Source of the DNA: Candidatus Kaiserbacteria bacterium RIFOXYD1_FULL_47_14
GTDB lineage: Bacteria > Patescibacteriota > Minisyncoccia > Phycocordibacterales > Phycocordibacteraceae
NCBI GenBank assembly: GCA_001781915.1
Contig: MFMU01000009.1
Coordinates: 7,449-48,826 of the forward strand
Direction: 5' to 3'
DNA: 41,378 nt
Below, piece after piece: positions 4,256 to 41,163 of this stretch (the first letter of the stretch is position 1; each line of letters opens with the position of its first letter). Below the pieces are notes generated by a model, which saw only the letters and a program-made list of their open reading frames with translations, was not told where the DNA came from and searched no databases. Both the position numbers and the translations under genes were made by a program.

Positions 4256-4669
4256 TTACGCCGCCGGAGCGGCTTCTTCTTCGACTTCAACCGCGGGGGT
4301 CTCCGTAACAAGAAGAGCTTCAGCGACAACTTCTGCTTCAGTCGGAGTTTCAACAACAGGAACTGCTTTTACCTCTTCTGTTTTCTCTTTTTCAATAGGA
4401 GTTTTTCTGCCAAGTACATTTATTTTCTTGCCTTCAATGATGCCCTTCGTAATAAGGAGGTTATGGATTGAGCCGGTCAGCTGTGCACCTTTGGCAATCC
4501 ATTCCTTCACGCGGACTTCGTCAATCGTGAGCGCCTTGCTACGAGGATTATAGGTACCGAGCTGTTCGGTAATGCTACCGGCTTTCGCGGCGCGGCTTTT
4601 CTCTAGGAGAACAATGCGAAACGCCGGATCATTGGTCCGGCCGATGCGTTGGAATCGAATCATCAACAT
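4256..4669 (-). CDS. rpsP: 30S ribosomal protein S16 with an acidic C-terminal extension
   Basis: MLMIRFQRIGRTNDPAFRIVLLEKSRAAKAGSITEQLGTYNP is a typical S16 N-terminus. The start at 4669 was chosen because a TATAGT box lies 7 nt upstream. The track start at 4675 is a GTG. Confidence 0.9.
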   Translation of the reverse strand: MLMIRFQRIGRTNDPAFRIVLLEKSRAAKAGSITEQLGTYNPRSKALTIDEVRVKEWIAKGAQLTGSIHNLLITKGIIEGKKINVLGRKTPIEKEKTEEVKAVPVVETPTEAEVVAEALLVTETPAVEVEEEAAPAA

Positions 4670-8943: not shown

Positions 8944-8961
8944 GCAAATACAAAAATTACT

Positions 8962-9000
8962 GGAGGTGAAACACCCAAGTTGCTTGGGTGTTTCACCTCC
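8962..9000. repeat. Palindrome C1 (perfect 18-bp stem, 3-nt loop)
   Basis: GGAGGTGAAACACCCAAG ttg CTTGGGTGTTTCACCTCC. It shares the GGT(G/T)AAAC..AAGTTGCT architecture with C2 (9930-9972) and the string GGTGAAAC(A/C)CCCAAGT with C3 (37867-37889). Confidence 0.85.
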
Positions 9001-9097
9001 AAGTTCTGGGTCTCTTGCTTTTGGCTTCGCAAGGAGCATACTTTATATGTGAGGTTTCGATCTCACTGTTGCTCTTTGGTTCAACCAATAACTCAGT

Positions 9098-12057: not shown

Positions 12058-12600
12058 CGAGTATTCCGGGTTAAAAAGTTCAACGATTTTTGTCCCATAT
12101 TGCAGGACAACATCGTGAGTTCGACGGCTCCCATAATCCAGTATTCTCAACTTCCCATTGTGAAAGCAAAAATTACGAGGTTCTTCAAAATGATGTCCAT
12201 CATCGGAGACCTTGCCGTTGGTTAACTCGAGAAGCTGCCACCAGAAACCAGTTTCTTCCAATTGGCATGGTTCATCGAATCGTTGAATGTTCAAAAGACC
12301 AAAGAGCGAAAAGTAGGTTGGTTGGAGGAATGGATTTTTTGTCTTTCGGTAAAACCGAAATTCATTCCAGTTAGCAGATAGGCCTCTGAATAAAAACCAT
12401 CTGAAACTGCTCATATTTTTTGTCGGAAATTCGAGATATCTTTTCAGAATTTTCCATCGCCTTCCTTTCGCGCCACAATGAAAGAACATTTGCCATGAAC
12501 AGCGTGCTGCAAAAAAGAAATGCACGATAGGAAGTTTAACTACTATCCCCAATGATGGAAAAACAAACACTATTCGGTCATTACCTTTTCTGATTTGCAT
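12043..12600 (-). CDS. Hypothetical protein, possibly a minimal protein-kinase-like fold
   Basis: 185 aa. Kinase-like landmarks seen by eye are GIVVKLP (beta3 Lys?), NEFRFY (alphaC Glu?), DDGHHFEEPRNF (catalytic-loop D..N?) and ILDYG (DFG-like). The gene is visibly more AT-rich than its neighbours, with a strong SD and its own terminator. Confidence 0.55.
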   Translation of the reverse strand: MQIRKGNDRIVFVFPSLGIVVKLPIVHFFFAARCSWQMFFHCGAKGRRWKILKRYLEFPTKNMSSFRWFLFRGLSANWNEFRFYRKTKNPFLQPTYFSLFGLLNIQRFDEPCQLEETGFWWQLLELTNGKVSDDGHHFEEPRNFCFHNGKLRILDYGSRRTHDVVLQYGTKIVELFNPEYSKPAR

Positions 12601-23531: not shown

Positions 23532-24785
23532 ATGGTAATTATGGTGTGGAGTCCCGATGTCTATATTTATCCATTCCTCTTCTTAGCGCTCTATTTTGAG
23601 TCATTTTTGCTCGTAACCTTCCTCTCGAAGCCAGCGCGTATGCGACGCCTCAAGACGGCAGAACTCTCTGTGGTCCCTAATGTAGCGATTATCGTCCCGT
23701 GCTGGAATGAAGAGACAACTATCGCTGGTACGGTTGAATCATTGCTCGCGCTCGAATATCCGAAAGAAAAACTCTCACTTATTCTTATTAACGATGGGTC
23801 GACTGACGGCACTCCCGCCGTTATCGATCGCTTCGCCGAGCATCCGCAGATTACAACCATTCATAAAGAAAACGGCGGAAAGTTTACTGCTATGAATATT
23901 GGTATCGAACACGCGAAAGATGCCGAGCTTATCGGCTTTCTCGATGCCGATTCGTTTGTCGCGCCTGACTCTCTACGCGAGATTGTCGCCGCCTTCGATG
24001 CACCCGACATAGCAGCGGTCACTGCGTCAATGTCAATTCATAAACCCATTACCTTATTCCAACGAATGCAGTATGCCGAATATTCTCTTTCTATAACGCT
24101 TCGCCATGTATTTGCATCAATTAATGGTCTGTATGTCGCACCGGGACCTTTCTCATTCTATCGACGCTCTGTCTTCACTGAAATTGGACTGTTTAAACAC
24201 GCCTATCTTGCAGAAGATATGGAGATGTCGATGCGCGTTCAGCGCGCCGGGCTTCGCATCGGTAACGCGATCCGTGCACGCGTGTATACCAAAGGTCCTT
24301 CGACATTTCCGAAACTCCTCACTCAGCGCGTCCGCTGGACAACCGGATTCTTGCGCAATGCACTTTTCGACTATCGTGATTTGCTCGGTAATAAGAAAAA
24401 CAAAGTACTGGGTATGCTCGTTTTACCCTTTGCGCTCTATGCTGTCGTCGGTGGCATTTCCCTTTTTGTATATGGTTTGTACCAGACGATTACACACGGC
24501 CTTCACACTATTTCTATGGCACAAACCGTACCATTTTCTTTTCTGTTTTCTTGGCATCCGTTCAATTGGTTTTATCTCCCTTTCACCATCACCACACTAC
24601 TTGGCGCGGCACTAATGCTGAATGTTTTTGTTTGGATGATGTTGGGTAAATATCTCTCAAAAACACCCGGGAAACTCGTCTTGAATATTGCGATATTTAT
24701 TGTCCTCTATGGTATCGTCGCGCCGGTCTGGCTCATACGCTCGGTCTCTGATGTGGCACTTGGCACACGAACTCCGTGGCGCTAA
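23532..24785 (+). CDS. Family-2 glycosyltransferase, processive membrane synthase type
   Basis: Present are VAIIVPCWNEE, ILINDGSTDGT, FLDADS, EDMEMS and the QRVRW (Q-x-x-RW) motif, with N- and C-terminal transmembrane segments. An alternative start at 23541 is possible. Confidence 0.85.
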   Translation: MVIMVWSPDVYIYPFLFLALYFESFLLVTFLSKPARMRRLKTAELSVVPNVAIIVPCWNEETTIAGTVESLLALEYPKEKLSLILINDGSTDGTPAVIDRFAEHPQITTIHKENGGKFTAMNIGIEHAKDAELIGFLDADSFVAPDSLREIVAAFDAPDIAAVTASMSIHKPITLFQRMQYAEYSLSITLRHVFASINGLYVAPGPFSFYRRSVFTEIGLFKHAYLAEDMEMSMRVQRAGLRIGNAIRARVYTKGPSTFPKLLTQRVRWTTGFLRNALFDYRDLLGNKKNKVLGMLVLPFALYAVVGGISLFVYGLYQTITHGLHTISMAQTVPFSFLFSWHPFNWFYLPFTITTLLGAALMLNVFVWMMLGKYLSKTPGKLVLNIAIFIVLYGIVAPVWLIRSVSDVALGTRTPWR

Positions 24786-24792
24786 TATACTT

Positions 24793-25491
24793 ATGTCTTT
24801 CTTCGCCCGAAACGCACTTATTGCTCTTGGTATTACGGTAGCAATTGCTGGCACCGTAGCATATACAGTCAATTATCTAAATCGGGCGCGCATCACCGAG
24901 CTTGTGGCTATAGAAAATCAACTTTCTATCGACACCCTTTCTCTTGAAACACAATTTTCTCTCCTTGAAACAGCGCCCTGCGACAGTGTCGCTTCCTCAT
25001 CTGTACTAACCAATGAGCTTGCCGATCTCGGCGATCGACTTGCCTACGCTGAAGCCCAACTCGGCAAAAACAATGTCCAGGTGATGCAATTAAAGAAGCA
25101 GTATTCACTACTCGAAATACGCGATTATCTTATTACGAAAAAACTCGCTGCAGCCTGTGGCGCAAAACCGGTAACAGTTCTTTATTTCTATAGCAACTCT
25201 GGCGACTGTAGCGACTGTGATAAGGCCGGCTACGCACTCTCGTATCTGAATACCACCTATCCAGCACTGCGCGTTTACTCGTTCGATTATAATCTTGAAC
25301 TCGGCGCATTAAAGACCTTCATTACTGTAAACAAAGTGCAAAGGGCTCTGCCCGCTTTTGTAGTGAATGGCAAACATCTGTACGGCTTCACCTCGCTCGA
25401 AGACCTTGAGAAAATCTTCCCGAAGGGTGCGCTCGCTTCGACAACTGCGACTGGTTCAACAAGCTCACCGCAAGCAAGTTCCAAACCTTGA
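24793..25491 (+). CDS. Membrane-anchored thioredoxin-fold protein (CxxC)
   Basis: MSFFARNALIALGITVAIAGTVAY is an N-terminal transmembrane anchor. VTVLYFYSNSGDCSDCDKAGY has a C-S-D-C motif in a thioredoxin-like context. The track start at 24688 would overlap the GT2 gene and is rejected. Confidence 0.6.
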   Translation: MSFFARNALIALGITVAIAGTVAYTVNYLNRARITELVAIENQLSIDTLSLETQFSLLETAPCDSVASSSVLTNELADLGDRLAYAEAQLGKNNVQVMQLKKQYSLLEIRDYLITKKLAAACGAKPVTVLYFYSNSGDCSDCDKAGYALSYLNTTYPALRVYSFDYNLELGALKTFITVNKVQRALPAFVVNGKHLYGFTSLEDLEKIFPKGALASTTATGSTSSPQASSKP

Positions 25492-25506: not shown

Positions 25507-26520
25507 ATGAAAGAAAATGCCCCAACACTTCAATCAATACCAGAAGAATCAGAAGAGCAATTTCGTACCAGACGAGCGGAACGCGTGGTAAAGTTTTTAG
25601 AAAAAATAGGAGCACTCGAATACGCAAAAAACATTCTCTCGAATGAAACGAATGGAGAAGCCCCTACATTTGAGGAATTTAAAGAATTTTTAAAACGAAT
25701 TAATGGGATTGCGAGAGATATTCCCATTTATGAAAGAAGATTTGATGGCGAAAAAGTTTATATTGATTATCCTCTAGGAGACGAGGAAATGCCCAGACAT
25801 GAAGATAAAGAAGATATTCTTGCATATGCGTATGAAGCCAGAACACATATTGATCCGGAAGATATTAAATATATGCTGCCTGCTGTTATAAACGCTGTAC
25901 ATTTGTTCAGCGATGGGAATGGCAGAACTAGTAGAATTATGCATCTTCTTCTCAAAGACGGTTCTTCTAAAGAAGATATAAAATTAGCTCTTGGGAAATA
26001 TGGTCGGTGGAATTCTTTTGATATAAATCCAGGAATTATCAGTTTTGAAATTGAGCGTATTGTATTGGGAAAGCATGGATGGGTATTTAAAGACAGCAAA
26101 CCAAACGGAAGATTGGGAGTAATTGAAACTGGCGCGAGTCACTATGAAGCGGGCCATCTTGATCAAAATCATCCATCCTATAAGGAAGCAGAAAAACTAT
26201 TTTGTCTATACGGAAAAGATTCTCAATATGTTCTGACTGCAATTCATATGAGTTTAGGAGATGGTAGTGTTCGAGATATATCTTCGAATTATTCTGGAAT
26301 AAATCGGGTATCACCACAAAAAATGTTGGCCACTTTACAACCTGAACAATGGCAGAAGATTATTGATAATTTCTACCAATTAAAGAAAGAACATGTTGAA
26401 ACGCTTGTGGACATATTTGTTGAACCAGACAAATTTATTTATGACGAAAAAAGTGGAGAAACACTGAAAGATATGTTCGAGAGAGAAATTCTACAAGCGC
26501 ACGAAAAATCTATATCTTGA
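25507..26520 (+). CDS. Fic-domain protein (putative AMPylase / adenylyltransferase)
   Basis: The canonical Fic motif HxFx(D/E)GNGRxxR is present as HLFSDGNGRTSR. The gene is visibly AT-rich compared with the flanking core genes. Confidence 0.85.
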   Translation: MKENAPTLQSIPEESEEQFRTRRAERVVKFLEKIGALEYAKNILSNETNGEAPTFEEFKEFLKRINGIARDIPIYERRFDGEKVYIDYPLGDEEMPRHEDKEDILAYAYEARTHIDPEDIKYMLPAVINAVHLFSDGNGRTSRIMHLLLKDGSSKEDIKLALGKYGRWNSFDINPGIISFEIERIVLGKHGWVFKDSKPNGRLGVIETGASHYEAGHLDQNHPSYKEAEKLFCLYGKDSQYVLTAIHMSLGDGSVRDISSNYSGINRVSPQKMLATLQPEQWQKIIDNFYQLKKEHVETLVDIFVEPDKFIYDEKSGETLKDMFEREILQAHEKSIS

Positions 26521-26538: not shown

Positions 26539-26559
26539 TGTGGCGGTTCAACCGCCACA
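26539..26559. repeat. REP-A copy 1 (just 3' of the RAYT-A stop codon)
   Basis: TGTGGCGGTT c AACCGCCACA is a 10-bp dyad. It lies between the Fic stop (26520) and the RAYT-A stop (26563). Confidence 0.85.
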
Positions 26560-26562
26560 AAA

Positions 26563-27234
26563 CTATTCGAGAAGAAGTCCTCTGAAATCTTTTAATTCCT
26601 CCTTTCTTTGCAAAATCGATTCCAGAGATGAAAGCGCGAACTCTTTATACTCACCAACATTTTTAAATTGCCCTAAAATAATTTCTTTTTCGCAAATGCC
26701 CTTAATCCTCGTATCTATATATTCTCCCCAACTTGACTTGCTCTCTACTAACTTGACAGTTGTGGCGATTGAACCGCCAAGTTGATGCACATGATCATTC
26801 AAATTCACATAGGAACTGGCGTGGAGAAGATATTCGTTTGAATCAATATGTATCGCTTTGAATCTTCCCTGAAATAACGCCCCGTTTCTTTCATATTTAT
26901 TATTAAAGTACCAAGTATATCCGCCAATTCTTTTCATAAACTCACTGATACCTCCATCTACGAGCTGTTCTAAAATGAGATGGTAATGATTCGGATTCAA
27001 ACAATACGCAAGAATATTAACAAGCTTCTCCGACAGTGTGGCGGTTGAACCGCCACACTGTCTACGCGAATTCTCATAGAGACTTCCTATCGGATCAATA
27101 ACATTGAATTCAATCATACTTTTAAAGAACCTTTCTATGTCGTATCGGTTCGTAAAGATAATCCTCTTATCAACCCCTCTGTTGAATACATGATAAAATT
27201 CTTCATTCGCGAAAGGTGCTTTTCTTGTACCCAT
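26563..27234 (-). CDS. IS200/IS605-family Y1 (HUH) transposase-like protein, RAYT-like (paralogue A)
   Basis: Present are FYHVFNRG, the HUH motif NHYHLIL, GALFQGRF and SSYVNLN (Tyr helix). Two internal segments (QCGGSTATLSE and LGGSIATTVKL) are encoded by REP-A palindromes. Confidence 0.85.
   Translation of the reverse strand: MGTRKAPFANEEFYHVFNRGVDKRIIFTNRYDIERFFKSMIEFNVIDPIGSLYENSRRQCGGSTATLSEKLVNILAYCLNPNHYHLILEQLVDGGISEFMKRIGGYTWYFNNKYERNGALFQGRFKAIHIDSNEYLLHASSYVNLNDHVHQLGGSIATTVKLVESKSSWGEYIDTRIKGICEKEIILGQFKNVGEYKEFALSSLESILQRKEELKDFRGLLLE
26763..26779. repeat. REP-A copy 2 (degenerate, inside the RAYT-A ORF)
   Basis: TGGCGATT g AACCGCCA has one mismatch in the 8-bp dyad. It is translated as GGSIAT. 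Confidence 0.65.
27032..27062. repeat. REP-A copy 3 (perfect 15-bp dyad inside the RAYT-A ORF)
   Basis: GACAGTGTGGCGGTT g AACCGCCACACTGTC. It is translated as RQCGGSTATLS, about 15 codons upstream of the HUH motif. Confidence 0.9.
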
Positions 27235-27260
27235 TGTTTATATCCTAACATTCGTTCCTT

Positions 27261-27277
27261 TGGCGGTTGAACCGCCA
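27261..27277. repeat. REP-A copy 4 (5' of RAYT-A, 15 nt from the tRNA-Thr 3' end)
   Basis: TGGCGGTT g AACCGCCA is a perfect 8-bp dyad. Confidence 0.85.
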
Positions 27278-35073: not shown

Positions 35074-35104
35074 CTTATGTGGGATTTCCGAAACCCTACA
35101 TAGG
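35074..35104. repeat. REP-B copy 1 (upstream of RAYT-B)
   Basis: The sequence is CTTATGTGGGATTTC c GAAACCCTACATAGG. The dyad is centred on 35089 with G.T pairs and one A/C mismatch. On the minus strand it reads ATGTAGGGTTTCGGAAATCCCACAT, with a GTAG head. Confidence 0.85.
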
Positions 35105-35119: not shown

Positions 35120-35803
35120 ATGGATTTGTACCATGTACTTAATCGTGGAATTGATGGACGCAAACTATTTCTTGACTCGCAGGACTACGCGCGATTTGTC
35201 CATAATCTGTACGAATTCAACGACACTGCCCCTGCATTAGAATTTACTCGCCGAGATACGCATAATTCGAATGTGGGATTTCCGAAACCCTACATTCGGA
35301 AAAGGAAACGGTTAGTGGAAATTCATGGATGGCATCTTGCAAAGAATCATTACCACTTACTTATTTCAGAGCTGATTGAAGGCGGGTTGGCGACTTTCAT
35401 GAAAAAGCTAAATATTGGTTTTGCAAACTATTACAATGAACGATATAGGCGACAAGGACACCTTTTCCAAGGGAAAACAAAGAAAATCCTCCTTGCGCGG
35501 CATGAACATTTTCTCTACATCCTCCATTACCTTCATTTGAATTCGCTAGATTATTTCCCTGGCGCGAAGAAATGGCGCGAACGAGACAAGGGTATTATTT
35601 CGAACATTCCAAAAATACTCGAATACCTCCGAGAATATCGCTGGAGCAGCTATCTTGATTATTGTGGTACACCGAACTTTCCATCAATCCTCACCACATC
35701 GCTTTTTGGTGATGCTCTTGGCACGAACTATGTCTCTTCTCTTAAAGAATATCTGATGGACCGAACCTCTGAGGATATAGATCAGAAATTACTAGAGTAT
35801 TAG
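35120..35803 (+). CDS. IS200/IS605-family Y1 (HUH) transposase-like protein, RAYT-like (paralogue B)
   Basis: Present are LYHVLNRG, the HUH motif NHYHLLI, GHLFQGK and LHYLHLN (Tyr helix). The protein is collinear with paralogue A. The internal segment SNVGFPKPYIR is encoded by REP-B copy 2. Confidence 0.85.
   Translation: MDLYHVLNRGIDGRKLFLDSQDYARFVHNLYEFNDTAPALEFTRRDTHNSNVGFPKPYIRKRKRLVEIHGWHLAKNHYHLLISELIEGGLATFMKKLNIGFANYYNERYRRQGHLFQGKTKKILLARHEHFLYILHYLHLNSLDYFPGAKKWRERDKGIISNIPKILEYLREYRWSSYLDYCGTPNFPSILTTSLFGDALGTNYVSSLKEYLMDRTSEDIDQKLLEY
35266..35300. repeat. REP-B copy 2 (inside the RAYT-B ORF, in frame)
   Basis: The sequence is TTCGAATGTGGGATTTC c GAAACCCTACATTCGGA. The 17-position dyad is centred on 35283 with wobble pairs and one mismatch. 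The 25-nt core is identical to copy 1. Confidence 0.85.
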
Positions 35804-35810
35804 CCATATA

Positions 35811-35841
35811 ATTATGTGGGACTTCCGAAATCCTACATGAT
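35811..35841. repeat. REP-B copy 3 (between the RAYT-B stop and the fba stop)
   Basis: The sequence is ATTATGTGGGACTTC c GAAATCCTACATGAT. It has the same polarity as copies 1 and 2. Confidence 0.85.
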
Positions 35842-37866: not shown

Positions 37867-37889
37867 ACTTGGGGGTGAAACCCCCAAGT
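37867..37889. repeat. Palindrome C3 / bidirectional terminator-like hairpin
   Basis: ACTTGGGGG tgaaa CCCCCAAGT has a 9-bp stem. It contains GGTGAAACCCCCAAGT, which differs at one position from GGTGAAACACCCAAGT in C1. It lies between two convergent stop codons. Confidence 0.7.
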
Positions 37890-38073: not shown

Positions 38074-39067
38074 TATGAATGAATGCACGAATAGCATCTG
38101 CTATGTGGAGAACATCGAGTCCATAGTGAGCGAGCAATTCGTCTGGCTGGCCTGACTGACCAAATTGATCCTGTATACCCAGTCGATGTATCGGCACGGG
38201 ATACTGTTCAGAAAGAAATTCAGTAATCGCACTTCCGAAACCGCCCGCGACTTGATGTTCTTCAATGGTGACGACGCGGCCCGCACGCTTCGCCACATCG
38301 AGCACCGCTTCAGTATCGAGCGGCTTTACGGTCGGTACATGGAGAACGACACACTCGATGCCTTCTTCGGCGAGCGTGCGGGCCGCACAAAGTGCCGTAT
38401 ATCCTAACGAACCAGTCGAAAGAATCGCAATTTTGAGCGTTCCTCCGCCAACTGGCGAATCCCAGAGAAGAAGCGCTTTCCCTATTTCAAATGGTGTTTC
38501 TGAAGTTGTAAAAGTCGGTGTTACTGCACGACCGAAACGAATGTATATCGGTCCATCGGTTGTCGCTGCAGCAACGATTGCCTTCCGCGCTTCTTCTGCA
38601 TCGCACGGCGCAATCACCGTCATATTCGGAAGCATGCGCATCATACCAATATCCTCAAGCATCTGGTGGGTCGCTCCATCAGGACCGACTGAAACGCCCG
38701 CATGCATTCCGCATATCTTTACTGACATCTGATTAAGCGCGATAGTGGTGCGAATGTGTTCATAATTTCTGCCCGGACTGAACACGGCGTAGGACGCAAT
38801 AAAAGGAATTTTCCCTGCAGCCGCCATGCCAGCGGCAACTCCTGCCATATTCTGCTCGGCAACGCCCATTTCAACAAAACGATCAGGGAACTCTTTCTGA
38901 AACTGTTCAGCGCGCGTGCTCTCAGAAACATCAGCGCAGAGCACGACGACGCGCGAGTCGGCTTTTCCTGCTTCCACTGCGCCACTTCCAAAACCATCGC
39001 GCATCGGAGCTTTTTCGATATCGTCCGCGAACACTTTTGCTGACATTCTTGCATCAGGATTAATCAT
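38069..39067 (-). CDS. tkt: Transketolase, C-terminal subunit (pyrimidine-binding and C-terminal domains)
   Basis: Present are MRDGFGSGAVEAGKAD..VVVLCADVSESTR, FVEMGVAEQNMAGVAAGMA and GATHQMLEDIGMMRMLPNM. The start at 39067 overlaps the N-subunit stop by 8 nt (ATGATTAA). An alternative ATG lies at 39046. Confidence 0.88.
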   Translation of the reverse strand: MINPDARMSAKVFADDIEKAPMRDGFGSGAVEAGKADSRVVVLCADVSESTRAEQFQKEFPDRFVEMGVAEQNMAGVAAGMAAAGKIPFIASYAVFSPGRNYEHIRTTIALNQMSVKICGMHAGVSVGPDGATHQMLEDIGMMRMLPNMTVIAPCDAEEARKAIVAAATTDGPIYIRFGRAVTPTFTTSETPFEIGKALLLWDSPVGGGTLKIAILSTGSLGYTALCAARTLAEEGIECVVLHVPTVKPLDTEAVLDVAKRAGRVVTIEEHQVAGGFGSAITEFLSEQYPVPIHRLGIQDQFGQSGQPDELLAHYGLDVLHIADAIRAFIHI

Positions 39068-39944
39068 GGCGGATTTCTTTAAGGAATCGTTCTCCTTCTT
39101 CATCTGTAGGCACTTTCCCGTGCCAATGATAATCATTTTCAATCTCCGGCACGCCCTTGCCGGGAATCGTGTGTGCGATAATGAGCGTCGGTTTTTCATC
39201 TATCGTTTTTGCTTCATCAATTGCTTGTATAAACTCTGTGATGTTGTGCCCATCGACTTCAAGCACATGCCAATTGAATGCGCGATATTTATCAGCGAGC
39301 GGTTCGAGCGGCATTATATCCTCGGTCATACCACCTATCTGTATATTGTTGCGATCTATAATCGCAGTCAAATTTGAAAGTTTATTTTTCCCGATGAACA
39401 TCGCCGCCTCCCAGGTGCTTCCTTCTTCCTGCTCGCCATCGCTCATCACACAGTAAATGCGCCGCCCATGTTTGGATATCGGAAGTCCCACATCTGATGT
39501 GGGACTTCCGATATCCCACATTTTATCGTCCATACGAAAGGCGTACGCTATACCAGCCGCCTGCGAGAGACCTTCGCCAAGCGGACCTGATGTGGTTTCA
39601 ACACCCGGCAATACTAAACGATCAGGATGCCCCTGGAGTCGGCTGCCAAACTTCCGTAGTGAGAGACATTCTTCAATAGGGAAATAGCCAGCGTGTGCCA
39701 TCGTCGCATAGAGTACCGGACAAATATGCCCGTTTGAGAGAACGAGCCGATCGCGCTCTTCCCACTCGGGCCACTTCGGATCGTGATTGAGAATATGAAA
39801 ATAAAATGCTGCAAAGATATCCGCCATACCGAGAGAACCAGCCGTGTGTCCGCTTCCTGCGGCAACAAGCATCTGAACAATTGTCTCGCGAATTGACTTC
39901 GCTCGTTTTTCCAGTGTGAGTAATTGCTCTTCAGTGAGTGCCAT
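39060..39944 (-). CDS. tkt: Transketolase, N-terminal (thiamine-diphosphate-binding) subunit
   Basis: Present are GSGHTAGSLGMADIFAAFYF, RDRLVLSNGH, LQGHP, VMSDGEQEEGSTWEAAMF and IIDRNNIQIGG. The gene contains an in-frame REP-B doublet at 39463-39521. Confidence 0.9.
   Translation of the reverse strand: MALTEEQLLTLEKRAKSIRETIVQMLVAAGSGHTAGSLGMADIFAAFYFHILNHDPKWPEWEERDRLVLSNGHICPVLYATMAHAGYFPIEECLSLRKFGSRLQGHPDRLVLPGVETTSGPLGEGLSQAAGIAYAFRMDDKMWDIGSPTSDVGLPISKHGRRIYCVMSDGEQEEGSTWEAAMFIGKNKLSNLTAIIDRNNIQIGGMTEDIMPLEPLADKYRAFNWHVLEVDGHNITEFIQAIDEAKTIDEKPTLIIAHTIPGKGVPEIENDYHWHGKVPTDEEGERFLKEIRHD
39463..39521. repeat. REP-B doublet (REPIN-like) in frame inside the transketolase N-subunit gene
   Basis: A perfect 20-bp inverted repeat pairs GGATATCGGAAGTCCCACAT (39474-39493) with ATGTGGGACTTCCGATATCC (39497-39516). 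The overlapping unit ATGTGGGACTTCCGATATCCCACAT spans 39497-39521. The left flank CGCCCATGTTTGGA is identical to that of the trmD element. The doublet is translated as MWDIGSPTSDVGLPISKHGR. Confidence 0.9.
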
Positions 39945-40725: not shown

Positions 40726-41163
40726 CTAGAACTTTGCAAGCCGTCGCGCGTGGCGTGGAGAATCAGAAAATGGTGTTTCGAGAAATTGCTTCACAGCTTC
40801 CTTCGCTTCTTCTGGAGTGATACATTGGGCGCCGAGTGAAAGCATGTTTGCATTATTATGTTCGCGAGAGAGTTTAATAATTTCTTGCGGACCGCCATAA
40901 AAAACGGCGGCGCGTACGCCGCGTACGCGATTCGCACACATCGCTTCTCCCTCGCCTGATTTTCCGATAACAATACCGCGAGCAGCCGCATCTGATGCGG
41001 CTGCTCGCGCGCAAGGCGTTACAAAATCCGGATAATCATCTTCAGGATTGAACACATATGCTCCCATATCTTCTACCTCATATCCAAGCATGCGAATCTG
41101 TTCAATGAGTACGCTCTTAAGCGCGAATCCTGCATGATCGGAAGCAATAAATACTTTAGACAT
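40726..41163 (-). CDS. rpiB: Ribose-5-phosphate isomerase B
   Basis: Present are MSKVFIASDHAGFALK, GIVIGKSGEGEAMCANRVRGVRAA and EHNNANMLSLG. The start overlaps the gap stop by 8 nt. Confidence 0.9.
   Translation of the reverse strand: MSKVFIASDHAGFALKSVLIEQIRMLGYEVEDMGAYVFNPEDDYPDFVTPCARAAASDAAARGIVIGKSGEGEAMCANRVRGVRAAVFYGGPQEIIKLSREHNNANMLSLGAQCITPEEAKEAVKQFLETPFSDSPRHARRLAKF

Follow-up and report, generated by a model that had tools for sequence, protein, structure and literature searches.

Genes for REP-associated tyrosine transposases (RAYTs, or TnpA-REP) flanked by repetitive extragenic palindromic (REP) elements have been well described (PMC3333891, PMC5581495, PMC8266576), and in Escherichia coli, Stenotrophomonas, and Marinomonas such a gene and its bordering REP/BIME elements make up a REPtron (PMC3333891, PMC8266576, PMC3479197). 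A conserved GTAG tetranucleotide lies 5' of the RAYT-associated palindrome (PMC3733652, PMC8266576), hairpins in the Marinomonas REPtrons are reported to be denser near the gene (PMC8266576), in some RAYT groups the flanking repeats occur in low copy number (PMC5581495), and REP doublets mobilized by RAYTs are known as REPINs (PMC3116915, PMC5581495). Intragenic REPs and Rickettsia palindromic elements are known in unrelated genes (PMC3733652). In the literature that we searched, there was no description of cognate hairpins at constant in-frame sites within a RAYT-like gene itself, and a literature search on RAYTs, REPs, or palindromes in Patescibacteria or the candidate phyla radiation returned nothing on the clade described here. 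The subject of this study is such an arrangement in a 41,378-nucleotide (nt) stretch of Candidatus Kaiserbacteria bacterium RIFOXYD1_FULL_47_14 (contig MFMU01000009.1), referred to below as the window, where gene A, encoding a RAYT-like protein, carries two copies of a short hairpin at its borders and two in frame within its coding sequence.

Gene A and its homologs resemble REPtrons in that a Y1 HUH gene is bordered by cognate palindromes of gene-specific sequence, several hairpin types occur per genome and each is tied to its own enzyme, recent gene duplicates are absent, inheritance is vertical, hairpins are denser near the gene, and the closest solved fold is that of a RAYT (4ER8). They depart from classical RAYTs in that several old paralogs coexist in one genome, and from REPtrons in that two fixed sites within the enzyme gene also carry cognate hairpins in frame and that the A protein is about 60 residues longer, has a helical C-terminal region, and does not reach the cutoff of the curated RAYT model. 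The arrangement is probably explained by a REPtron-like enzyme-hairpin system, in which hairpins are copied or homogenized and the sites they reach include loops that the gene for the enzyme itself tolerates.

Gene A encodes a predicted Y1 HUH enzyme

Gene A and its four hairpins, S1 to S4, occupy the following positions in the window (hairpins carry no strand).

26563 to 27234, minus strand: open reading frame (ORF) A, Y1 HUH tyrosine-transposase-like by Pfam, alignments, AlphaFold2 (AF2), and Foldseek; HUH is H83-Y-H85 and the catalytic Tyr is Y142
27261 to 27277: S1, upstream hairpin TGGCGGTTGAACCGCCA, 26 nt before the ATG (27232 to 27234) and 13 nt after tRNA-Thr
27032 to 27062: S2, intragenic perfect palindrome with 15-nt arms (27032 to 27046 and 27048 to 27062), encoding QCGGSTATLS, residues 58 to 67
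26763 to 26779: S3, degenerate intragenic copy with 1 mismatch, encoding GGSIAT, codons ~152 to 158
26539 to 26559: S4, hairpin TGTGGCGGTTCAACCGCCACA downstream of the gene, separated by 3 nt from the stop codon (26563 to 26565)

The reading frame of ORF A is intact over 223 amino acids, from an ATG start to a TAG stop, and both the span and the four motifs that an earlier note on this DNA had quoted (FYHVFNRG, NHYHLIL, GALFQGRF, and SSYVNLN) were present in the sequence and translation. Pfam Y1_Tnp (PF01797) matched residues 68 to 144 with 26.9 bits against a cutoff of 23 (E = 5.6e-6), and H83 and H85 of NHYHLIL and Y142 of SSYVNLN were invariant both in a 24-sequence alignment of A proteins and in a 121-sequence alignment that combined A with the paralogous B proteins described below. 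An AF2 model of protein A built on the 121-sequence alignment reached a pLDDT of 81 and a pTM of 0.79, while the 24 close homologs alone gave a pLDDT of 37 and were not used. The best PDB fold match of this model in Foldseek was 4ER8_A (E = 3.9e-5), which is the E. coli RAYT in complex with a REP hairpin, and the top 23 PDB matches were RAYT, IS608, and ISDra2 transposases, with a probability of 1.00 and target-normalized TM-scores of 0.50 to 0.63; a PDB sequence search with the A profile gave no relevant match.

A large protein collection contained 2,587 homologs of protein A, the best 120 of which were 68 to 100% identical, and the named entries among these 120 were labeled as Patescibacteria lineages. 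A profile search of cluster representatives (50% identity) gave 912 clusters with an E value of ≤1e-30, and a scan of species-representative genomes gave 79 loci, nearly all labeled as Patescibacteria lineages and often several per genome. Judged from sequence and predicted fold, the best explanation is that ORF A encodes a catalytically intact Y1 HUH single-stranded DNA (ssDNA) endonuclease/transposase of a large Patescibacteria clade, the nearest characterized relatives of which are the RAYTs. With this number of homologs, the invariant HUH and Tyr residues, and a constant locus for the protein in all 10 contigs shown of the 22 that carry it, ORF A is not a decaying pseudogene. The label "RAYT-like" that the earlier note had applied holds for fold and gene layout; it does not extend to the curated RAYT model, which the protein misses, or to the hairpins, which are without a GTAG tag.

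Four copies of one hairpin lie at gene A

Allowing up to two mismatches, GGCGGTTSAACCGCC occurred exactly four times in the window, always at gene A (26542, 26764 with 1 mismatch, 27040, and 27262), compared to a chance expectation of 0.03 copies, and 0 of 100 shuffles reached four. The four palindrome copies and the perfect dyad at S2 had been described correctly in the earlier note, and only its gaps of 4 nt past the stop and 27 nt before the start needed correction, to 3 and 26 nt. Consecutive hairpins are spaced 222, 276, and 222 nt apart. Folded as ssDNA, S2 reached −18.3 kcal/mol (z = −7.0), the flanking copies −10.7 and −9.3 kcal/mol, and the degenerate S3 −4.9 kcal/mol. In the clade to which the window's A gene belongs, CTTGG/CCAAG has changed to TGTGG/CCACA, and S1 and S3 each retain one old-type arm, S3 being a hybrid of one arm in the family-consensus form, CAACTTGGCGG, and one clade-specific arm, CGCCACA.

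In the AF2 model, the S2 peptide falls in a disordered loop (residues 50 to 67, pLDDT of <50) between helix 1 and the strand preceding HUH, and the S3 peptide forms the turn of a β-hairpin (strands 148 to 152 and 160 to 164) right after the catalytic-Tyr helix, with a pLDDT of about 59 over residues 151 to 160. Both predictions agree with the idea, raised earlier, that the palindrome-encoded peptide is a tolerated loop.

The four-site layout recurs across the family

Palindromes were scanned in each related gene plus 200 nt on either side, and 81 homologous Patescibacteria genes were counted. Hairpins recurred at about −30 to −50, at about +175 to +200, at about +440 to +480, and at or just after the stop codon, with four hairpins in 34 genes, three in 32, two in 11, and one in 4. 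Site occupancy was 75/81 for S1, 52/81 for S2, 63/81 for S3, and 68/81 for S4 (at or over the stop), compared to 18/236 in control windows of equal size. Together with the codon-pair covariation described below, this occupancy of S2 and S3 sustains the earlier proposal that the intragenic copy is maintained.

The family consensus, cACTTGG-nn-G..C-nn-CCAAGTg, combines an outer stem (ACTTGG/CCAAGT) that is conserved family-wide with inner base pairs and a loop that vary, and no position outside cACTTGG...CCAAGTg was conserved. The protein loop is shorter in members that lack an internal hairpin, which identifies the internal copies as insertions or deletions in tolerant loops.

Each gene has its own hairpin, and the copies of it change together

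Comparing the central 11 nt of hairpins gave 86% identity within a gene (59% of pairs identical) and 46% between genes (0.8% of pairs identical). The centers were 66 to 68% identical between genes whose proteins were at least 70% identical and 43% identical at 50 to 60% protein identity, so hairpins evolve faster than the protein, yet remain alike within a gene. Paralogs in the same genome were 49 to 78% identical, and their hairpins differed in all 15 pairs examined from 13 genomes, as the palindromes specific to each paralog in the earlier note would predict. In some genes, such as L044 and L007 (related loci are designated by L numbers), several sites of the one gene carry the same stem mismatch, GCGGT opposite ACCCC, and shared mismatches of this kind indicate copying rather than independent selection for pairing.

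The same concerted change can be read in the protein. Residues flanking the hairpin center covary as reverse-complement codons dictate, with L(CTT)/K(AAG), C(TGT)/T(ACA), and Y(TAT)/I(ATA) joined across homologs by R(CGT)/T(ACG), G(GGC)/A(GCC), and G(GGG)/P(CCC). The hairpin encodes the peptide LGGxTxK, which recurs at both sites of one protein, and perfect stems of 10 to 19 bp take in third codon positions. Loops at any two sites were direct or inverted at about 50:50, and this random orientation yields peptide pairs such as LGGRTPK and LGGPTPK in one protein (CGG versus CCG). Among 150 cluster representatives, reverse-complement-compatible peptides were enriched about 4-fold (71 observed versus 16.7 in shuffles) and peaked at residues 60 to 70 and 150 to 160. 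Such covariation in sequence suggests that each enzyme probably recognizes its own hairpin.

L044 and L007 had suggested that the flanking copies keep a constant orientation to each other, but a count over all loci, at about 50:50 direct and inverted, rejected this. Chimeric hairpin sets in L006, L028, and L042 hinted at module shuffling between paralogs, for which per-segment nearest neighbors were very noisy.

Paralog B carries a related hairpin that also lies in transketolase

A second Y1 gene of the window, B, has the same kind of layout, and its hairpin type extends to a metabolic gene.

35120 to 35803, plus strand: ORF B, 227-amino-acid paralog, 33% identical to A and flanked by the genes for ribosomal protein L25 and fructose-bisphosphate aldolase
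35078 to 35100: B hairpin S1, TGTGGGATTTCCGAAACCCTACA, upstream of B
35272 to 35294: B hairpin S2, intragenic, encoding NVGFPKPYI
35815 to 35837: B hairpin S4, directly past the stop of B
39474 to 39520: B-type hairpin doublet, its 21-nt arms perfect, that reads in frame within the split gene for the transketolase N subunit (39060 to 39944, minus strand)

The B palindrome TGTGGGAYTTCCGAAAYCCTACA was found before the start, inside ORF B at the S2-homologous position, and after the stop, with a fourth copy at 39498. Alignment places the intragenic copies of A and B alike between the EFN...P segment and the strand preceding HUH, the equivalent position that had been proposed for them. The B family comprises 1,900 homologs and uses three sites (S1, S2, and S4), and its hairpin, CATGTTGGACGT...ACGTCCAACATG, is related to the A-family type and encodes NVGRTTSNM, HVGRGTSNM, and similar peptides. 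Between L25 and fructose-bisphosphate aldolase, the B locus is present in the window, L001, L112, and L114 to L117, and among these syntenic orthologs the hairpin was different in every genome with all sites changed together, so that the specificity first proposed for paralogs is seen here as well. The same L25/aldolase spacer is empty in L009, and in L118 it contains a solo cognate hairpin, with the B-like gene located elsewhere.

The transketolase copy lies 3.7 kb from gene B and encodes an 18-residue insert, KMWDIGSPTSDVGLPISK, that is missing from the solved homologs 6YAK and 3MOS. Of 120 Patescibacteria transketolase orthologs, about 60% had a palindrome-encoded insert at that loop and about 40% had none. 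In three contigs containing both genes, the arms of the insert were those of the hairpins of the B-like gene on the same contig and differed between contigs, the common arms being TTGGACGT in L116, TAGGACCTC in L117, and TCGGGACGTA in L118. Housekeeping genes that accept palindromic repeats in frame, as additional stretches of peptide, recall the Rickettsia palindromic elements and intragenic REPs. Compared to those elements, the units here are much shorter (about 20 to 50 nt) and tied to a specific neighboring Y1 enzyme, the same loop is filled in many orthologs by genome-specific sequence, and no gene hosts them as regularly as that of the enzyme itself.

Two observations concern rpiB. Two copies of the cognate hairpin of the L118 B-like gene, at 4438 to 4466 and 12268 to 12296, are one in frame in rpiB, where it encodes CRDVLRPDM, and the solo copy in the aldolase/L25 spacer. 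In the window, an rpiB-like ORF (40726 to 41163, minus strand) contains a 33-nt perfect palindrome at 40977 to 41009 that encodes ARAAASDAAAR in a conserved part of the protein; it is of a sequence type other than the A and B hairpins and involves no insertion relative to L116 and L118, and L118 has a palindrome at the equivalent place.

A third Y1 paralog type was seen in L116 (gene 1362 to 2021), with its own hairpin, GCCAAGGGGCGCCCTTGGC, at 768 to 818, 1288 to 1334, 1500 to 1522, and 2027 to 2053, representing upstream doublets, an intragenic copy, and a post-stop copy. The layout thus reaches beyond the A and B families.

Hairpins are concentrated at the genes and rare elsewhere

In 1.18 Mb of loci, 72 family-type perfect hairpins were inside Y1 genes, 103 were within 120 nt of one, and 34 were farther away. 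Up to 120 nt from the gene, hairpin density was 5.0 per kb, and it then fell to 0.075, 0.031, 0.028, and 0.015 per kb out to 10 kb, while other palindromes stayed flat at about 0.2 per kb over the same distances. Most of the 34 distant hairpins were intergenic, often just past a stop codon, and about 5 were in long ORFs. Within the window there was no A-type copy outside gene A and one extra B-type copy, and two further hairpin features were found.

37867 to 37889: solo hairpin of the family-consensus type, ACTTGGGGGTGAAACCCCCAAGT, 2 nt past the stop codon of a PfkB-type kinase ORF
8961 to 9001: intergenic palindrome with 19-nt perfect arms, a doublet in which two imperfect units of the family type (TGGAGGTGAAACACCCAAG / CTTGGGTGTTTCACCTCCA) are inverted to each other

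The solo hairpin is identical to the hairpin of the L004/L005 paralog type, and this sequence match suggests a third Y1 paralog elsewhere in the source genome. The intergenic doublet looks like a REPIN-type doublet. More generally, the inverted doublets at 39474 to 39520, at 8961 to 9001, and in L116 (768 to 818) are like REPINs in having sequence in common with the hairpins of the associated enzyme gene, and they are unlike REPINs in being present in apparently few copies per genome rather than hundreds, alongside many single units, several of them coding. In a ComEC-like gene (L097, 7510 to 9033), an A-type hairpin (TSGGSTATM) is in frame, and so is a B-like doublet that has diverged (IWDIVSPSSYGGLTMSKHG); the contigs with this gene come from samples in which the source genome is also present, L097 being from the same JGI sample as a contig with protein A.

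Gene A is inherited in place

Protein A was found on 22 contigs, and in all 10 shown, each from a different sample, the gene was at the same locus; the DNA of this locus was identical or nearly so in 8 comparable contigs. A tRNA-Thr(UGU) gene precedes hairpin S1 by 13 nt on the same strand as ORF A, and in L003, where the protein is 71% identical, tRNA-Thr and glycosyltransferase neighbors are found as at A. Both the A and B loci remain syntenic across 68 to 77% protein identity, and no pair of paralogs in the same genome exceeded 78% identity, i.e., there were no recent duplicates. A constant locus with conserved neighbors is what vertical inheritance of a host-like gene would give, and it does not suit an insertion sequence that is active.

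A REPtron-like system and its alternatives

In the REPtron-like system that we favor, each gene of the clade and its own short, nearly perfect hairpin, with an inner stem and loop private to that gene, would form one unit. The enzyme most likely binds its hairpin when the DNA is single stranded, as do TnpA-REP and IS608 TnpA, and would cut and rejoin beside it, so that hairpin units would be copied, replaced, or homogenized, singly or as inverted doublets; it is by analogy to solved relatives that binding, cleavage, and copying are ascribed to the enzyme (PMC3479197, PMC8266576). This action would be most frequent in or beside the gene for the enzyme, with occasional events at other sites, and in-frame copies would survive in tolerant loops, such as the disordered loop that precedes the HUH strand, the turn that follows the catalytic-Tyr helix, and loops of housekeeping proteins like transketolase. 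Repeated re-copying, together with ordinary template switching within the palindrome, would keep copies of one type alike and allow fast divergence between genomes, and would make the intragenic copies look maintained rather than decaying.

Several results weigh against this explanation. There was no sign of current movement at the A locus. The NCBIfam RAYT equivalog NF047646, with a cutoff of 80 bits, was reached by neither A (24.0 bits) nor B (19.5 bits), and by sequence protein A is only a distant relative of curated RAYTs. No GTAG/CTAC tag or other conserved flanking tetranucleotide was found: GTAG or CTAC occurred within 10 nt of 25/129 flanking hairpins, close to chance by a rough estimate of about 11 per motif. 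Unlike the palindromes of REPtrons, A-family hairpins are almost perfectly symmetrical, which leaves no REP/iREP distinction, and no REP/iREP-like strand or orientation rule was seen (orientation was about 50:50). In the loci scanned, hairpins appear to be low in copy, far below classical REPs with their tens to hundreds of copies per genome, at 0.015 to 0.03 per kb away from the gene. A metagenome scan for the A-type hairpin gave 22 stretches, 4 of them with an A-like gene, and few plausible solo copies; many single hits were in high-GC, unrelated contigs and are probably chance matches. Contigs identical to the window were missing from its output, and the scan therefore cannot count the copies in the source genome. 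Finally, the pairing of enzyme and hairpin is read here from sequence and a predicted fold, and homogenization by host recombination and template switching, weighed below, is a competing source of the same pattern.

Four other explanations were weighed against these data. If gene A were an autonomous IS200-like insertion sequence of about 750 bp from S1 through the gene to S4, its internal hairpins would be accidental ends and hairpin dispersal a by-product. Unit size and hairpins at both ends do resemble IS200/IS605 elements, the catalytic fold is the same as in the TnpA proteins of IS608 and ISDra2, and presence or absence at a chromosomal site is evident from the three states of the aldolase/L25 spacer, which is empty (L009), occupied by a solo cognate hairpin (L118), or filled by hairpin-gene-hairpin (window, L001, L112, and L114 to L117). 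However, the A family is without the multiple near-identical copies within a genome seen for IS200/IS605 (maximum, 78% amino acid identity), its loci and those of B are syntenic across 68 to 77% protein identity, and protein A is at a constant place in all 10 contigs shown of the 22 that carry it. Both ends are one and the same symmetrical, near-perfect hairpin, unlike the imperfect subterminal hairpins on one strand that set the left end of IS200/IS605 apart from the right, no second ORF resembling tnpB was noticed between the bounding hairpins (no specific search for one was made), and neither the perfect internal copies of the end hairpin nor their covariation with distant transketolase copies is explained, making this account unlikely. 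Homogenization by host processes alone, through short-tract gene conversion and template switching at quasi-palindromes, with the enzyme uninvolved and its association with the hairpins historical, would account for the random loop orientation, which template switching is expected to produce, and is compatible with the shared stem mismatches, as any copying process would be; perfect palindromes also arise in conserved coding sequence with no insertion or deletion, as in rpiB (40977 to 41009). It does not account for family hairpins that are about 70-fold denser within 120 nt of Y1 genes (5.0 versus 0.075 per kb) and then decay while other palindromes stay flat, or for a private hairpin kept by each paralog even beside sister paralogs in one cell. 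It also requires conversion between 20- to 30-nt repeats that are kilobases apart and inside essential genes, and RecA-type recombination is poor at converting such short repeats over kilobases. We regard host processes alone as quite unlikely.

Local selection on RNA offers another account, in which the hairpins act as terminators, mRNA stabilizers, or translation brakes unrelated to recognition by the enzyme. The positions of S4 at the stop codon and S1 in the leader suit such a role, as do solo copies that often follow stop codons (e.g., 37867 to 37889) and the excess of G-T over A-C sense-strand mismatches in flanking copies (31 versus 11, a count biased by site selection). Yet no T-run follows the stems, a consensus terminator scan was negative at S1 and S4, a promoter scan likewise lent no support to terminators there, Rfam returned tRNA only and no family match for the hairpins, and intragenic copies were without a sense-strand wobble bias (25 versus 27), with all sites together giving 56 versus 38 (P = 0.08). 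Local selection cannot produce the genome-specific identity of flanking copies with in-frame copies in transketolase, and an RNA role as the whole explanation is highly improbable. Selection for the repeated peptide LGGxTxK as a structural or functional motif used twice, with DNA palindromy incidental, would be in keeping with the predicted β-hairpin at S3 and with the recurrence of the motif in the family, but it is contradicted by the presence of the same sequence in noncoding flanks. Complementarity includes third codon positions over perfect stems of 10 to 19 bp, nearly any residue pair that reverse complementarity allows was found (GS/TS, GH/VS, and GY/VS), and the loop is dispensable in many members, which leaves this possibility hardly credible. 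None of these four explains the genome-specific identity of gene-associated and distant in-frame copies as well as the REPtron-like system does.

An extension of the REPtron-like system would be that the hairpin-encoded loops help the enzyme recognize that same hairpin, so that one re-copying event could switch enzyme and target specificity together. The loop residues at both sites are those dictated by the variable base pairs. In the E. coli RAYT, binding requires a C-terminal segment that makes contact with the GTAG tag (PMC8266576), and it is the similar placement of the S3 loop, right after the catalytic-Tyr helix, that makes self-recognition conceivable. Internal hairpins are missing from one or both sites in many members, the loops accept almost any residue pair, and the S2 loop is predicted to be disordered, all of which argue against it, and we consider it a long shot; if true, it would amount to a self-referential specificity module.

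Implications for HUH enzymes and Patescibacteria annotation

The A clade represents a large unexplored branch of putative hairpin-recognizing HUH enzymes, each with a gene that itself displays the candidate target in as many as four copies. These genes offer a natural set of candidate enzyme-hairpin pairs for learning how Y1 HUH proteins read stem sequence and a possible source of orthogonal HUH tags for protein-DNA conjugation. They also provide a clear case of concerted evolution of short repeats across noncoding DNA, the coding sequence of the enzyme itself, and essential genes, through which the long-standing question of whether and how REPs are disseminated and homogenized by RAYT-type enzymes becomes testable by comparative genomics. 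Small, streamlined genomes evidently tolerate palindromes in protein loops, with amino acid pairs set by reverse-complement codons, and such palindrome-encoded loops matter for annotation, alignment, and the reading of "insertions" in Patescibacteria proteins.

Neighboring genes

Downstream of gene A and convergent with it, a 337-amino-acid ORF (25507 to 26520, plus strand) bears a Fic-type motif, HLFSDGNGRTSR. This ORF is missing at the otherwise syntenic L003, where the A-like gene abuts a homolog of ORF 24688 to 25491. Small ORFs with Pfam hits of the 23S_rRNA_IVP/bAvd type, missing from the window, lie between or near the transketolase subunit genes in L117 (7908 to 8315) and L118 (2573 to 2947).

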